Positions 1-4,486 of a DNA stretch of 4,486 bases are shown in pieces (within the stretch, counting starts at the first letter, position 1; the number at the start of each line of letters is the position of its first letter). The stretch spans positions 1-4,486 of the IMG/VR virus record IMGVR_UViG_2630968639_000001. One strand, 5' to 3'. Source of the DNA: a virus (lineage: Duplodnaviria > Heunggongvirae > Uroviricota > Caudoviricetes). The notes under the pieces are model-generated. The model was given only the letters and a program-made list of their open reading frames with translations, was not told the DNA's origin and ran no database searches. The translations under genes and the position numbers were made by a program.

Positions 1-446
1 GCACCTTTGTGTGTGATACGCAGGCGTGTACCGATGCCATTATTAATTGCGTTACCACCAGCAGCACCGGCAGCGTTACTACCACCATTGCCACCGCGTC
101 CATAGACAGTCACACCTGCGTTGATTACAAGGCTGATATAAGAGTTGGTAAGTGAACTCGGGAAATCTAAACATGGCACGCCGCTACTGGACGACACCAG
201 ATCCCCTGTAATGGTAACAACGACTGGCGTCGCCCCCTGGGATTTTAAATAGTTGATCAGTGTGTCTTTGTTGTAGTTATGATTCGCACCGATGCTGTAC
301 TGAACTTCTTTAGATCGCCCGGCCATTTGAGACATTGAACCAGCCGCTGGCAGTTGCACCGCCGTTCGAGCCGCACTCATCCATCTCTGGCCTGTCACAC
401 TGACAGCCGAAGACCCAATCCAACCGGGAACACCGACAATTGGCAC
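1..446 (-). CDS. Putative T2-type gp38-like tail-fibre adhesin, N-terminal part (3'-partial, continues beyond window start)
   Basis: Hand translation from GTG 446..444 gives MPIVGVPGWIGSSAVSVTGQRWMSAARTAVQLPAAGSMSQMAGRSKEVQYSIGANHNYNKDTLINYLKSQGATPVVVTITGDLVSSSSGVPCLDFPSSLTNSYISLVINAGVTVYGRGGNGGSNAAGAAGGNAINNGIGTRLRITHKG with no stop through position 1. AAGGAG (plus strand 454..459) sits 7 nt upstream of the GTG. The N-terminal VGVPGWIGSSAV..TGQRWMS motif and the glycine-rich GRGGNGGSN..GG motif match my recollection of T2/T6-type gp38 adhesins. The ORF track misses it because it is partial and GTG-initiated. Confidence 0.7.
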   Translation of the reverse strand, partial: MPIVGVPGWIGSSAVSVTGQRWMSAARTAVQLPAAGSMSQMAGRSKEVQYSIGANHNYNKDTLINYLKSQGATPVVVTITGDLVSSSSGVPCLDFPSSLTNSYISLVINAGVTVYGRGGNGGSNAAGAAGGNAINNGIGTRLRITHKG

Positions 447-453
447 ATCTAAT

Positions 454-459
454 CTCCTT
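454..459 (-). promoter_or_regulatory. Shine-Dalgarno (AAGGAG on minus strand) for the downstream adhesin-like ORF
   Basis: Plus strand ctcctt at 454..459 is AAGGAG on the coding strand, 7 nt upstream of GTG 446..444. Confidence 0.6.
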
Positions 460-480
460 TTTGATGTGAATATCCTGAAT

Positions 481-500
481 GGTGAGGGTGGCCCCTCACC
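481..500 (-). other. GC-rich intercistronic stem-loop (8-bp stem, 4-nt loop) between the fibre stop and the adhesin start
   Basis: GGTGAGGG (481-488) pairs perfectly with CCCTCACC (493-500). On the minus-strand transcript it lies 11 nt after the TAA and is followed by AUUCAGGAUAUU, with no U-tract. Confidence 0.4.
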
Positions 501-511
501 ATTCACCTTGA

Positions 512-3500
512 TTACATTTTTGCCTTCAGTTCGCGCACTTCCTCGCGCAGCTCTTTGACAGCCTCGACCAACATGCCGATAACGCCGTTGTAGTTAAGAC
601 GCAGACGAGGCTCTCCTGACTGATCGTTATGGTCAACCGTTACCAGTTCAGGCTGAACATTCTGGACGTCCTGAGCGATGAGGCCGCCAGACTGCTCATA
701 ACGGCCACAGACCTGAATCTCGTAGAGAACACCTTCGATCTGCTCCAGCTTGTCGAGCGCCCGCTCAATTTTGCGAATATTGCGCTTACTACGGCGGTCG
801 GAACGGATGTAAACGTCATTAAAACTACCGTTGCCTGCGCAAACCCAAGTGCCGTCGTTCTGGAGATAAGCGGCAGCGTCAGTGCCGTTTGCGGTACGTG
901 AGTTGTTGATCATGTAAAAACCAAACTGACTGTTTCCCAAGCCACCCAAGAAGAATTTGCGATCCGCGTGGTCTTGTCTCAACAACGCTTGTGCAGAGCT
1001 TGTACTTACAGCGTTCCTCCCGAAGATGACGTTCTGGTTACGCATATCTATCCACGCGCCAGAGCCGCTGTTGATGGAAAAACGGTTGGCGTAAACCCAC
1101 GCACTTGACGTGATGTCACCCGTTACACTCAACGGCTTAAGGCTTTGCAGCGTGCTATTAACGAACCTAAAAACATGGGCGCTATTGGCGTAAACATCCA
1201 GAATGCCATCTCCGTTCTGTTTAAAGCCGGTGTCATTGTCACCCAGAACAATGGAATTACCGCCAAGACCATTGACCACACCCAGCCCAAGACCACCGTT
1301 AACAACAGCACCATTGCCCATTGTTACTCTGCCATTAGTGAGATCTACATAAAATGGACGAAGCGAACCTATATCACCATTTTCTCCCTGGTCTTTTGCT
1401 GTCGGGATAAGGTAAAAATTATTTTCGGAACGGCGAAAAATCATCCCGTATGCCGCATCGTAAATGCGTAACCCATCCGTAGAGCGGATCTTAAGCTGTC
1501 CGGACATCGTACCGCCGCTGTTTTTCATAAATAGCGCATCAATCCAGCCTGCAAATCCCGACTTATTAATGTATAAATTTCCATCATTTGCCAGAATGCC
1601 TCCACCTTGCGTCTTGAGGGGCTGACTCACATTTTGCAGCGTCAGCACACCAGTCATTGTTCCGCCAGAAATCGGTAACGCACCGACATCAGCCGCAGTG
1701 GGTTTGAGAGCAGTGTTGTAATCTCTGCGCCAGGCAGGGGCATACGCGCTACCGTGATTAATATAGGTGAACTGAGCACTGGCAATACCACCTCCGGTTG
1801 TCGTTGTAGGCGTAGTAACTCGGATGGTCATTGCGCCTTCGTGACCTAAAACCTCGATAACCGCACCAGCAAGACAAATATTGCCGACACCTGTATCAGT
1901 GATAATTTTATTGTCGGCATATGACCAAGAGCCTTTCATCATCCAATACGGTACGGCGAAAGCACCACGCTCCTTCAGCCATGCGATAAATTCAGCGGTA
2001 GTCCAGTTGCCAGCCCCAGTACTGTATGACGCGCTAAACGTCTGTGCAGCCCCAACATCTTTCGCTGTGGGTTTATGAGCAGTGGTATAGACCTGCGCCC
2101 AACCAGACCAATTCGCTGTCGAAGTATCACGGCGTGAACGAACATAAACCGGTGCATGAGCACCATCCGTTCCGCTCCAGCCAACAAGCATCTCGCCCTC
2201 ACCAGAAGCACTCGCACCTTTCATGTGCAATACGTTGCCATACATGGTCGGGTAGCTATTGTTGTACGCCTCATACATTTGAATGCCAGCAGTGCCTTGA
2301 GTAGAGCCGCTTAACGCCGTAACTCGGCCACGAGATACCAATGTATTAATATTGATATCGCCTGAACCATCAAACTTAACACCATTGATGTTTCTCGCTG
2401 TTTGCAACTTCGTAGCCGTTGAAGCATTGCCATTCAAGCTACCATTTACGCCACCAGTAACATTGAGTCCATTAGCGATCGTAACAGCACCATTGGCATT
2501 GTTAATGATAAGCGGCCTTAAACTATTATAGGTTCCCAGGCTGTTACCCGAATTGGTCAACATGAAATATGTGTTTGAACCATCGTTTCGGATAAAGAAT
2601 CCGTAGCTTCCGTAGGCAATGCGCAGACCATTCGCCGATTTTGAAATGATCTCACCAGTAGCCGTTAAACCGCCGTTGAGATTTCCTCCGGTTATTGGTA
2701 ATGCGCCGACATCCGTGGCGGTCGGTTTAATGTGCGAACTGTAAATGACATATACCGTTCCATCAGTAAGACCAGTTGGTTTATTCGCTGTATAAGTTGG
2801 TGATGTATGAATCGTTACGCTGGCGTTACTGGTATAATCCCACTGAATATTAACACCTGTGGCGTAATTACCTATTTCAACATAAACATCATAGGTATCA
2901 CCGGATGTATTCACCCATGCAAAATTAGTAAATCCAACCGATGTCCGTCGCCATAATGCACCAGTAATACCCTTTGGATTTCCATTTCCGGCACGCAGAA
3001 CCAGCTCAGAGATGCCTGCTTGATGCGGGGAGCCAACGTTATACCCTGCACCACCAATCAGGCTTATGTAAACCACGGAACTGGCCTGTGGCATGGTTAC
3101 AGTTGCCAGCTTGAACCATCCGGCACCACCACTAAAAGATATTGTTGCTGAGTTGATCGTGCCTATAGACCTTGGAGTTAGCTCAATGTTTTTAGAACCG
3201 TCAAACGACACCCCATTAATAGTACGCGCAGTCTGCAACTTCGTAGCAGTAGCCGCATTACCTGTTGTATTCTGATTACCAGTCGTATTAACACCTGGCA
3301 AATTAATATTTGCAGTACCATCAAAGCTCACGCCGCCGATAGTTCTTGCCGTCTGTAGTTTTGTAGCAGTTGCGGCATTACCAGTGGTGTTCTGATTACC
3401 CGTAGTATTTACACCTGGAAGGTTGATATTTGCAGAACCGTCGAAACCAACTCCACCGATAGATCTTGCCGTCTGCAATTTCGTTGCTGTACTTGCATTA

Positions 3501-4486
3501 CCATTTAATGTTCCGGTGATACCACCAGTAACAGACAACGGACCTGAAACTGTTCCTCCGGTTGTTGGCAGTGCTCCAATATCTAACGGCGTCGGTTTCT
3601 GATGTGTGCTATACATCGTATAAACAACACCATAGGTAACGCTGGAAGGCTTACTCGCTGAATATGTTGGCGATGTATAAATAGAAACTGACGCATTTGC
3701 AGTACAATCCCAATGGATATTTACACTCGTCGCATAATTGCCAATTTCAACGTAAATATCATATGTATCGCCGGATGTGTTGATCCAGGCGAAATTCGCT
3801 AATCCGACAGCTGTACGCTTCCACAAAGCACCTGTAATTCCTTTGGGGTTTCCATTGCCTGCTCGTAGAACCAGTTCTGAAATGCCTGCCTGATGTGGGG
3901 AACCGACGTTGTAACCAGCGCCACCAATCAATGCGATGTAAACGATGGAACTCGCTTGTGGCATGGTAACCGTAGCCAGTTTGAACCACCCTGCCCCGCC
4001 AGAGAAAGACATCGTTACTGAATTTAAAGTACCAATATCTTTCGGCGTTAATGTGATATCCGCAGTCAGTGCTTTTCCGTTAACTTTTCGGTTAGATGGC
4101 ACCCTGCTATTCGCATTGTCATTGGCTGCTTTAACTGCTTTTGGCGTTGCGGCCAGCGATTCACTGGTGCTGTCGACAGCACTGCTAAGTTTCACAACAC
4201 CTTTAGTTGTAAGGCTTGCGTCTTCCATCGCAACTGCACCGGCAATCTCTTCAGCACGATCAGCAGCAGCTTCCGCACGGGTCGCAGCGGATTCAGCAGC
4301 AGTTTTGCTCTGAGATGCTGCCGTCGCACTGCCTGCCGCCTCTGTTGCCTTCGTGGATGCCGTCGTGGCGCTGCCCTTCGCTGCTGACGCCTGTCTGGTC
4401 GCCTCATCTTTTGAAGCAGACGCCGATGAGGCCGATGACGCCGCCGAACTGGCGGACGATGCGGCAGCCGTTTTTGAGGATTCTGC
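512..4486 (-). CDS. Side/long tail fibre protein, 5'-partial (N-terminus lies beyond window end); lambda Stf-like N-terminal region, repeated distal modules, C-terminal peptidase S74 intramolecular chaperone domain
   Basis: ORF track gives 1238 aa from ATG 4228..4226 to TAA 514..512. My hand translation of the minus strand over 4229..4486 in the same frame has no stop and reads AESSKTAAASSASSAASSASASSASKDEATRQASAAKGSATTASTKATEAAGSATAASQSKTAAESAATRAEAAADRAEEIAGAVA before MEDASLTT, so Met 4228 is internal. The following motif KGVVKLSSAVDSTSESLAATPKAVK matches the conserved lambda Stf-type motif from memory. KPTxxDVGALP motifs recur four times and ATKLQTAR tail-fibre repeats are present. No convincing SD precedes ATG 4228. 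Confidence 0.93.
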   Translation of the reverse strand, partial: AESSKTAAASSASSAASSASSASASKDEATRQASAAKGSATTASTKATEAAGSATAASQSKTAAESAATRAEAAADRAEEIAGAVAMEDASLTTKGVVKLSSAVDSTSESLAATPKAVKAANDNANSRVPSNRKVNGKALTADITLTPKDIGTLNSVTMSFSGGAGWFKLATVTMPQASSIVYIALIGGAGYNVGSPHQAGISELVLRAGNGNPKGITGALWKRTAVGLANFAWINTSGDTYDIYVEIGNYATSVNIHWDCTANASVSIYTSPTYSASKPSSVTYGVVYTMYSTHQKPTPLDIGALPTTGGTVSGPLSVTGGITGTLNGNASTATKLQTARSIGGVGFDGSANINLPGVNTTGNQNTTGNAATATKLQTARTIGGVSFDGTANINLPGVNTTGNQNTTGNAATATKLQTARTINGVSFDGSKNIELTPRSIGTINSATISFSGGAGWFKLATVTMPQASSVVYISLIGGAGYNVGSPHQAGISELVLRAGNGNPKGITGALWRRTSVGFTNFAWVNTSGDTYDVYVEIGNYATGVNIQWDYTSNASVTIHTSPTYTANKPTGLTDGTVYVIYSSHIKPTATDVGALPITGGNLNGGLTATGEIISKSANGLRIAYGSYGFFIRNDGSNTYFMLTNSGNSLGTYNSLRPLIINNANGAVTIANGLNVTGGVNGSLNGNASTATKLQTARNINGVKFDGSGDININTLVSRGRVTALSGSTQGTAGIQMYEAYNNSYPTMYGNVLHMKGASASGEGEMLVGWSGTDGAHAPVYVRSRRDTSTANWSGWAQVYTTAHKPTAKDVGAAQTFSASYSTGAGNWTTAEFIAWLKERGAFAVPYWMMKGSWSYADNKIITDTGVGNICLAGAVIEVLGHEGAMTIRVTTPTTTTGGGIASAQFTYINHGSAYAPAWRRDYNTALKPTAADVGALPISGGTMTGVLTLQNVSQPLKTQGGGILANDGNLYINKSGFAGWIDALFMKNSGGTMSGQLKIRSTDGLRIYDAAYGMIFRRSENNFYLIPTAKDQGENGDIGSLRPFYVDLTNGRVTMGNGAVVNGGLGLGVVNGLGGNSIVLGDNDTGFKQNGDGILDVYANSAHVFRFVNSTLQSLKPLSVTGDITSSAWVYANRFSINSGSGAWIDMRNQNVIFGRNAVSTSSAQALLRQDHADRKFFLGGLGNSQFGFYMINNSRTANGTDAAAYLQNDGTWVCAGNGSFNDVYIRSDRRSKRNIRKIERALDKLEQIEGVLYEIQVCGRYEQSGGLIAQDVQNVQPELVTVDHNDQSGEPRLRLNYNGVIGMLVEAVKELREEVRELKAKM
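515..802 (-). other. Peptidase S74 / intramolecular chaperone autoproteolytic domain (C-terminal 96 codons of the fibre CDS); predicted Ser/Lys dyad Ser 802..800 and Lys 787..785
   Basis: C-terminal sequence SDRRSKRNIRKIERALDKLEQIEGVLYEIQVCGRYEQSGGLIAQDVQNVQPELVTVDHNDQSGEPRLRLNYNGVIGMLVEAVKELREEVRELKAKM. The S-x4-K spacing and the GxIAQ..PELV...NYNG.IG.L.EA.KEL pattern fit the S74 chaperone domains of endosialidase tailspikes and T5 L-shaped fibre as I recall them. Confidence 0.8.
1295..1495 (-). repeat. Copy 2 of the paralogous 'GLRI...SLRP...NG.VT' module (aa ~912-978)
   Basis: IRSTDGLRIYDAAYGMIFRRSENNFYLIPTAKDQGENGDIGSLRPFYVDLTNGRVTMGNG; protein-level similarity only. Confidence 0.5.
2342..2440 (-). 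repeat. Isolated fourth, more diverged copy of the ATKLQTAR repeat unit
   Basis: Encodes SLNGNASTATKLQTARNINGVKFDGSGDININT (fibre aa ~597-629); nucleotide similarity to the array is visible around 2391-2440 against 3341-3390. Confidence 0.7.
2450..2650 (-). repeat. Copy 1 of a paralogous 'GLRI...SLRP...NG.VT' module within the fibre (aa ~527-593)
   Basis: ISKSANGLRIAYGSYGFFIRNDGSNTYFMLTNSGNSLGTYNSLRPLIINNANGAVTIANG aligns with the copy at 1295..1495; protein-level similarity only. Confidence 0.5.
2681..3187 (-). repeat. Copy 2 of the duplicated module of about 169 codons (fibre aa ~348-516)
   Basis: Protein IELTPRSIGTINSATISFSGGAGWFKLATVTMPQASSVVYISLIGGAGYNVGSPHQAGISELVLRAGNGNPKGITGALWRRT...KPTATDVGALPITGG. 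Plus-strand shadow ORFs 3093..3275 and 3945..4313 both begin MVTVASLNHPAPP, an independent sign of the duplication. Confidence 0.85.
3188..3502 (-). repeat. Tandem array of 120-nt (40-codon) repeats, about 2.6 copies, encoding ATKLQTAR-type tail-fibre repeats
   Basis: Units at 3383..3502, 3263..3382 and partial 3188..3262 encode GNA[AS]TATKLQTAR[ST]IGGV[GS]FDG[ST]ANINLPGVNTTGNQNTT. Blocks 3361-3420 and 3241-3300 align base for base with scattered mismatches. Confidence 0.85.
3551..4057 (-). repeat. Copy 1 of a diverged duplicated module of about 169 codons (fibre aa ~58-226)
   Basis: Protein ITLTPKDIGTLNSVTMSFSGGAGWFKLATVTMPQASSIVYIALIGGAGYNVGSPHQAGISELVLRAGNGNPKGITGALWKRT...KPTPLDIGALPTTGG aligns colinearly with copy 2. 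The nucleotide similarity is visible at an 870-nt offset, for example 3751-3810 against 2881-2940. Confidence 0.85.
4229..4486 (-). other. Ala/Ser/Thr-rich low-complexity segment of the fibre protein (lambda Stf-type shaft region), in frame with and upstream of Met 4228
   Basis: Hand translation codon by codon: 86 codons with no stop, dominated by A, S, T, K and E in short quasi-repeats (SAxxA, AAxSxx). Confidence 0.8.

Follow-up and report, generated by a model that had tools for sequence, protein, structure and literature searches.

Short conserved linkers between the modules of phage tail fibre genes have been proposed as joints at which these mosaic genes recombine. Such linkers were suggested for a tail fibre gene on a stretch of viral DNA of 4,486 nucleotides (nt) (Caudoviricetes; IMG/VR record IMGVR_UViG_2630968639_000001, positions 1 to 4,486; the whole stretch is called the window here), in which a KPTxxDVGA peptide recurs four times. 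The question raised by this locus is whether the motif acts as a joint and, if so, whether it does so at the level of DNA or of protein. The gene (512..4486; stop codon 512-514) is a single open frame of which 1324 codons lie in the window and whose 5' end lies beyond 4486; like all features described below, it is located on the minus strand. An initial annotation, prepared from the sequence letters, had interpreted the four peptides as hinge motifs with conserved nucleotide tracts. Our analysis suggests that the motif is probably a connector at the protein level, which also serves as a permissive joint for module exchange.

By translation of the reverse complement all four peptides were found where the initial annotation had placed them, except that copy 3 (KPTAKDVGAA) starts 3 nt away from the reported ~2048 and occupies 2045-2074. 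Each copy is located at the end of a module, as had been noted. Module A1 ends with copy 1 (KPTPLDIGALP, 3566..3598, amino acids (aa) 297-307), after which come TTGG and a beta-helix/repeat region, and copy 2 (KPTATDVGALP, 2696..2728, aa 587-597) ends module A2 and opens a gp34-P4-like/Mu-S-like segment. A gp34-P5-like domain ends with copy 3, in extended form KPTAKDVGAAQ (2042..2074, aa 805-815), in which an S'-like cassette begins in place of the LP..GG tail. Copy 4 (KPTAADVGALP, 1673..1705, aa 928-938) ends this Mu-S'-like cassette and opens the ISGGTMTG distal shaft. In random sequence of the same composition 9.4e-6 occurrences of KPT..D[IV]GA would be expected by chance, compared to the four observed. 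The motif extends further than first noted, with an invariant Tyr five residues upstream and LPxxGG after three of the four copies, and in full it reads Y-x4-K-P-[TS]-x2-[DE]-[IVL]-G-A, usually followed by L-P-x-x-G-G.

The modules bounded by the motif are of different kinds. Module A1 (3599..4021, aa 156-296) is of a knob type running from GGAGWFK to YSTHQ, and A2 (2729..3151, aa 446-586) is its paralogue and second copy; the duplicated module of ~150 aa is visible as direct repeat D1 (2683-2982 versus 3553-3852, 70% nt identity). Both modules are opened by a degenerate cousin of the motif, A1 by d1 (LTPKDIGTLN, 4022..4051, aa 146-155) and A2 by d2 (LTPRSIGTIN, 3152..3181, aa 436-445); A2 moves as a cassette delimited by d2 and copy 2. 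At the place equivalent to these cousins, the relative L004 carries a canonical KPTARDVGA directly before a GGAGWFK module. The gp34-P5-like domain (2075..2341, aa 716-804) ends in ...NWSGWAQVYTTAH and was aligned by phmmer to PDB entries 4UXE, 5NXF and 9X3R, and the Mu/P1 S'-like cassette (1706..2041, aa 816-927) matched PDB entry 8JU3 with 175 bits.

That relatives of the gene gain, lose or swap cassettes with junctions inside the motif was seen at nucleotide resolution, with three of them (L211, L210 and L212) providing resolved junctions. The gene of P0118 in L211 corresponds to the window gene apart from the lack of exactly 369 nt (123 codons), the Mu-S'-like cassette from copy 3 to copy 4. 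On the upstream side of copy 3 the two genes are 91-100% identical over spans of 60-900 nt, and downstream of copy 4 they are 97-100% identical. Since the single motif present in L211, CAT AAA CCC ACT GCG GCT GAT GTC, is of the copy-3 type up to CAT and of the copy-4 type from ACT, the crossover lies inside the shared AAACCCAC. A second junction of the 369-nt indel, ACA GCG GCT, was found in L210 (P0084), and here the switch was placed in GCG. L212 (P0035) lacks 150 nt between SGGTMTG (1649..1669, aa 940-946), which is the tail of the extended motif and the left end of this indel, and SGGTMSG (1499..1519, aa 990-996) at its right end, with the switch in GGCGG; the segment (1511-1660, aa 943-992; aa 945-998 in homologue alignments) is absent in ~20 close homologues. 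Novel joints were thus mapped inside the motif in L211, L210 and L212. In L004 the flanks were kept and a GGAGWFK module from the duplicated family takes the place of the S'-like cassette between copies 3 and 4, the high-scoring segment pairs (HSPs) ending at 1684, in copy 4, and at 2049, in copy 3. Module order was moreover permuted among otherwise near-identical fibres of SSU5-like phage-plasmids, those of loci L210 and L211 included, with the motif at each junction.

Junctions at the remaining copies were visible as ends of blastn HSPs. At copy 2 these were located at 2685 (L073/L077/L078), 2697 (L072) and 2728 (L044), the match to P1 ended at 2713 and matches to Yersinia phages began at 2718-2721. 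HSPs of module-A relatives ended at 4011-4037, around d1, and at d2 ends were detected at 3154-3167 in L072, L038, L044 and the Yersinia phages, the interior of module A1 being almost devoid of alignment endpoints. L072 and the Yersinia phages have only the cassette from d2 to copy 2 in common with the window (L072 HSP 2697-3154; Yersinia 2718-3167).

Junctions of this kind could in principle arise around a structural connector without any role in recombination, which would coincide with the boundaries as a domain boundary, with the real crossovers elsewhere in the flanking modules. In swaps of the L004 type the flanks are homologous over hundreds of nt and crossovers are possible anywhere in them, and in close relatives the boundaries lie mostly elsewhere. 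Both the 369-nt and the 150-nt indel, however, have their two ends in two copies of the motif, with flanks that are 91-100% identical up to the junction, and therefore the joint itself lies in the motif. We consider a connector without a role in recombination unlikely.

The conserved nucleotide tracts that had been ascribed to the motif were not recovered. Third positions agreed in 19 of 48 codons for the same residue, and the longest exact run shared between copies was 8 nt. The proposed core ggta..gc.ccgacatc fits copies 2 and 4 but not copies 1 and 3. Across the four copies 17 of 33 bases are invariant. Of these, 15 occupy the first or second position in the codon of a conserved residue, and the two invariant third positions belong to the Lys codon AAA and the Asp codon GAT. 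Among 142 non-identical occurrences of the motif on viral contigs the codons for Pro, Thr and Gly were spread over all four synonymous codons. As synonymous sites are scrambled and shared runs do not exceed 8 nt, the nucleotide similarity is what the protein motif imposes, with no independent DNA signal. The shortest homology that pairs efficiently is 31-34 base pairs (bp) with RecA and 23-27 bp with Red-beta (PMC3945230). Neither nucleotide conservation beyond the need of the protein nor runs long enough for such pairing, both to be expected of a homologous-recombination linker, were found in the motif. The idea of a linker of the Susskind-Botstein type, conserved as DNA and kept to start homologous recombination, would account for junctions inside the motif, for a patch of ~24 nt shared by copies 3 and 4 with 4 mismatches (ACC/AAC ACT GCT CAT/CTC AAA CCC ACA/ACT GCG) and for somewhat biased Ala and Lys codons. 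It is nevertheless improbable in view of the scrambled third positions, of shared runs far below 23-34 bp and of recent breakpoints that are not enriched at the motifs.

A structural role of the motif was suggested by gp34, the proximal long tail fibre protein of T4, whose sequence PPQPSDIGALP aligns residue for residue with copy 3. In this alignment NWSGWAQVYTTAHKPTAKDVGAA pairs with SWSSFVQVFDGGNPPQPSDIGAL, and K805-A815 falls on gp34 residues 1242-1252 (numbering checked on the full-length chain 9X3R). The P5 beta-prism of gp34 comprises residues 1146-1238, and the triple beta-helix residues 901-944, 1014-1047, 1105-1128 and 1255-1271 (Granell et al., 2017; PMC5537660). Located between P5 and the last triple beta-helix, copy 3 would therefore correspond to the connector that leaves P5 and enters the last beta-helix. 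The position of copy 2 aligns to gp34 ~1014-1027, at the start of the beta-helix stretch that follows the preceding protruding domain; we read the protruding domain between the 901-944 and 1014-1047 helices as P3. The Gp34_trimer model (PF21446) matched the whole protein with 112.5 bits in 3 stretches, above the gathering cut-off of 27 bits. On 81-aa pieces it scored 64.5 bits around copy 2 and 28.5 bits around copy 4, which are spanned by profile positions 38-95 and 14-61, respectively, and lie at about the same positions of the profile. Taken from these alignments, the motif would be the exit connector from a protruding domain in a trimeric fibre.

The comparison with gp34 also bears on the word hinge. 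Hinges that allow a fibre to bend from one module to the next could be located between domains as the motifs are, and the motifs contain Pro and Gly as such hinges might. The equivalent residues of T4 gp34, however, connect the P5 beta-prism with a triple beta-helix that is rigid and intertwined; they do not lie at the knee of the fibre, which is formed by gp35, and the bend reported in the gp34 structure is near residue 881 (PMC5537660). Strict conservation of seven positions would in addition be unusual for a flexible linker. The term hinge is thus not supported, and a bending function appears very unlikely.

The motif is widespread among phage fibres. A scan of IMG/VR with the back-translated motif detected at least 120 viral stretches, compared to 8 for a control in which the same blocks were arranged in scrambled order. 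The pattern included the conserved Tyr codon, and Y, K, P, G and A are invariant by design of the search. Matches were located in long open frames (median 735 aa, among at least 120 stretches), and the sequences that follow the motif vary, for example LTDAQAAQKY, LPAGGTAVAA, LPLSGGQLNG and WTAAQSAASE. Residues that the pattern did not require were yet frequent in 142 non-identical contexts, namely W at -9 (62%), N at -1 (58%) and L at +9 (56%); the frequent W at -9 and N at -1, also noted for the 148 non-identical contexts from viral loci L081-L199, suggest that the domains ahead of the motif are for the most part distantly related to the gp34 P5-type domain (W..W...Y). The motif was also found in fibres of Mu (S'), P1 (S'), Gifsy-1, Fels-1 and Vibrio phages. 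With the P5-like domain plus copy 3 as tblastn query, matches to P7, D6, RCS47 and Goslar ended three residues short of the motif, those to Gifsy-1, Fels-1 and the Vibrio phages passed through it, and those to P2-type H fibres and Yersinia phages began within it. Altogether 469 occurrences in 185 of 271 homologues join 10 upstream to 17 downstream families in 29 combinations, and the motif is hence conserved at the protein level across unrelated flanking domains.

Taken together, these results are best explained by a protein-level connector that probably doubles as a permissive joint. Via the connector each chain would leave a protruding globular domain and pass back into the triple beta-helix at the centre or on into the domain that follows. 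As the same connector would begin and end many domain families that are unrelated to each other, any two fibre genes could be joined within it with frame and structural register kept. The connector would thus be the place where gain, loss, swap and re-ordering of modules survive selection. Joints would form at microhomology of 3-8 nt provided by the codons of the conserved residues, and as this is far below the pairing minimum of 23-34 bp, new joints would be rare short-homology events. Once present, a new arrangement may spread through homologous recombination of the ordinary kind between the shared modules on either side. We infer that selection for foldable products, and not a DNA signal, concentrates junctions at the motif, although a small DNA-level contribution beside selection cannot be separated from it; the direction of each event, insertion or deletion, is likewise our interpretation. 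A more far-reaching version of this idea holds that the connector is a universal portable splice adaptor, with motif-to-motif microhomology events frequent enough in phage-plasmid populations for receptor-binding modules to be added, dropped and re-ordered as cassettes without any invertase. We put this version forward tentatively and rather doubt it; if it were true, the connector would offer a general rule for where to fuse fibres of different phage families into chimeras.

The suggestion that breakpoints are enriched at the motifs held for distant homologues and failed to reach significance for close relatives. As even divergent modules are aligned over their full length by plain blastp, the ends of its HSPs carried no information, and phmmer envelopes and identity segmentation were used instead. 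For the distant set the whole protein was compared by phmmer to 150 representatives at 50% identity, which yielded 958 internal envelope ends. These piled up at all four copies: 21% were located within 10 aa of the copies, which span 9.4% of the length, a 2.2-fold enrichment. In permutations with four random sites, P was 0.002-0.003 for all four being peaks and 0.01-0.05 for the sum. The endpoints formed sharp peaks and left the module interiors near-empty; 31 domain starts fell into the bin aa 300-309 at copy 1, and at copy 3 24 domain ends were found at -3 and 12 starts at +3. In six homologues high identity began exactly at K928, the first residue of copy 4. For the close set a two-state identity segmentation was applied to alignments to 120 homologues and 80 viral loci. 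Recent boundaries were commonest in the ATKLQTAR repeats or inside modules, more so than at the KPT motifs, as is expected for ordinary homologous recombination. These repeats are not KPT motifs and comprise three tandem copies of 120 nt (3185..3544; GNAxTATKLQTARxIxGVxFDGSxNI; families D2 and D3) and a fourth copy at 2364-2431.

Several observations weigh against the connector acting as a joint in the way proposed here. In the close set only 8 of 43 identity-boundary clusters were located within 10 aa of a motif (P = 0.08), none of them near copy 1. Among distant homologues, endpoint peaks without a KPT motif occurred at the ATKLQTAR repeats and at aa 980-1000, 1050-1070 and 1120-1140, domain boundaries in themselves account for some of the phmmer envelope ends, and the homologues do not form an independent sample. 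Within the motif, the use of Lys (AAA) and Ala (GCA/GCG) codons departs from the background usage of these genes, a bias which we tentatively attribute to shared ancestry and sequence context. The 81-aa pieces around copies 1 and 3 gave no Gp34_trimer match at E ≤ 1, and no Pfam model was reached by them. The structural role was carried over from T4 gp34 by alignment, and an AlphaFold2 monomer model of aa 716-990, computed without an alignment, had a mean predicted local distance difference test score of 31.5, too low for the model to be of use. Finally, the difference between L210 and L211 (ACA versus ACT) could reflect a second event or a later point mutation.

Fibre genes of P1 and Mu are rearranged by invertases, and the motifs could conceivably be remnants of crossover sites of the Cin/Gin type. 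With AAACC, the Lys-Pro codons of the motif look like one half of the AAACC-NN-GGTTT core of such sites, and P1 and Mu fibres share modules with the window gene. The window carries no invertase gene, however, and no AAACCNNGGTTT was detected in it even with one mismatch allowed (0 matches). The annotated P1 cix crossover lies in codons for ...VIQY/LGLRE..., at a different place and in a different peptide. A relic of an invertase site was therefore rejected, its probability being close to nil. The P1 cixR crossover itself (L209, AF234172.1 36471-36490) is located in codons for ...AVIQY/LGLRELG..., and an equivalent site is missing from the window gene.

Judged by its matches, the gene belongs to an SSU5-like phage-plasmid of E. 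coli and encodes a tail fibre of mosaic build. Patchy DNA matches were obtained to Salmonella phage SSU5, to the Escherichia phages CMS-2020a and Cyrano and to 458 plasmid records of ~110 kilobases (kb), mostly from E. coli, and the E. coli protein P0001 (full-length, 1692 aa) is 100% identical across the part of the fibre that lies in the window. The exact arrangement is absent from 5426 complete E. coli genomes, the best of which reached 91% coverage at 95.7% identity. Pieces of the gene are present in 3811 of these 5426 genomes, mostly on chromosomes (5431 places versus 468 on plasmids). In P0084 the S'-like module is located ahead of the P4/P5-like modules, P0043 harbors a copy of the duplicated knob module near its distal end, and P0047 and related proteins also differ in module order. 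The copy number of the ATKLQTAR repeats varies among relatives, and aa 323-372 are absent in many. A small variable patch was observed at 4172-4270 (aa 73-105), which is ~67% identical in homologues that are 96-99% identical on either side; it is located in the N-terminal region, which is rich in Ala and Ser, and where the Phage_fiber_2 repeat begins.

Besides the three Gp34_trimer stretches, Pfam matches of the fibre were Phage_fiber_2 (aa 91-131) and Peptidase_S74 (aa 1229-1283); many PHROG tail-fibre families were matched by the long frame, and a search of NCBIfam returned no family for the protein. In the PDB it matched Mu S (5YVQ, 9KI1), a Mu S/S' chimera (8JU3), T4 gp34 (4UXE, 5NXF, 5NXH, 9X3R) and gp37 of S16 (6F45). 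The C-terminal Peptidase_S74 intramolecular chaperone domain is encoded at 638..802, and the match to 6F45 covers aa 1202-1323. Directly after the fibre gene a gp38-type adhesin gene begins (1..446; start codon GTG at 444-446, with AGGAG 7 nt upstream), of which only the start is present before it runs off the window. It matched Gp38_N and GP38 in Pfam as well as phrog_2056, is annotated on plasmids as 'receptor-recognizing protein' and shows ~78% nt identity over 1-446 to the T-even phages PaulHMueller and 236Ecol005PP. As a gp38-type adhesin follows a fibre with a Peptidase_S74 chaperone and an S16-gp37-like tip, this temperate phage-plasmid carries a fibre tip in the style of T2 and S16.

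Mosaicism of tail fibres sets the host range of phages, and it is debated whether new domain combinations originate by limited homology or by illegitimate joining followed by selection. The locus offers a concrete, nucleotide-resolved case, in which a connector of 9-11 residues bounds modules of different origin. Near-identical phage-plasmid fibres differ by clean cassette indels, and the location of both indel ends within connector copies, with microhomology of 3-8 nt, favours rare short-homology joining filtered by structural compatibility. The connector is also a specific and widely conserved site that is worth trying as fusion point for engineered fibres, and the value of the locus rests mainly on its clean junction footprints and on this possible design rule for chimeric fibres. 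The idea that fibre genes recombine at conserved motifs is established and was put forward for gp37/gp38 of T-even phages (Tetart, Desplats and Krisch, 1998, J Mol Biol 282:543, as cited in PMC10879196), and fibre-gene recombination was also treated by Sandmeier (1994) and Haggard-Ljungquist (1992), as cited in PMC3945230. Full-text searches on the motif strings found no paper naming the KPTxxDVGA motif, and those for fibre motif joints returned general mosaicism papers only, older key papers being outside the scope of both. The motifs of Tetart, Desplats and Krisch are reportedly His boxes and glycine-rich stretches, not KPTxxDVGA. As the principle and the protein family of the motif, with its existing Pfam entry and solved structures, are already known, the locus refines the picture and is no surprise.

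The fibre can be placed among four known systems. Fibres of SSU5-like phage-plasmids (SSU5, CMS-2020a, Cyrano and ~110-kb plasmids of E. coli, Enterobacter and Citrobacter) are 90-98% identical to the window in patches and share its gene order, a fibre followed by a 'receptor-recognizing protein'. In contrast, the exact module order of the window was found in no record, the best coverage being 91%. The C-terminal region of T4 gp34 (4UXE, 5NXF, 9X3R; PF21446) aligns over its residues ~1014-1266 with aa 585-833 of the window fibre. gp34 has one clear and one degenerate copy of the motif (MPININASG), whereas the window fibre harbors four canonical and two degenerate ones, which separate modules of different origin, including Mu S/S'-like ones and a duplicated knob module that is absent from gp34. 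The S/S' fibres of Mu and P1 (5YVQ, 9KI1, 8JU3) have three modules in common with the window fibre, carry ...YTTTRKPSAGDVGAYTQ... before the receptor-binding tip and show a degenerate FTKNIGA where copy 3 lies in the window fibre; unlike the window gene, which is without such a site, they swap tips by invertase-driven inversion at cix/gix sites that encode IQYLGL. For gp37/gp38 of the T-even phages the same idea was reportedly proposed (Tetart et al., 1998), with short conserved motifs in adhesin genes serving as joints at which specificity modules are swapped.

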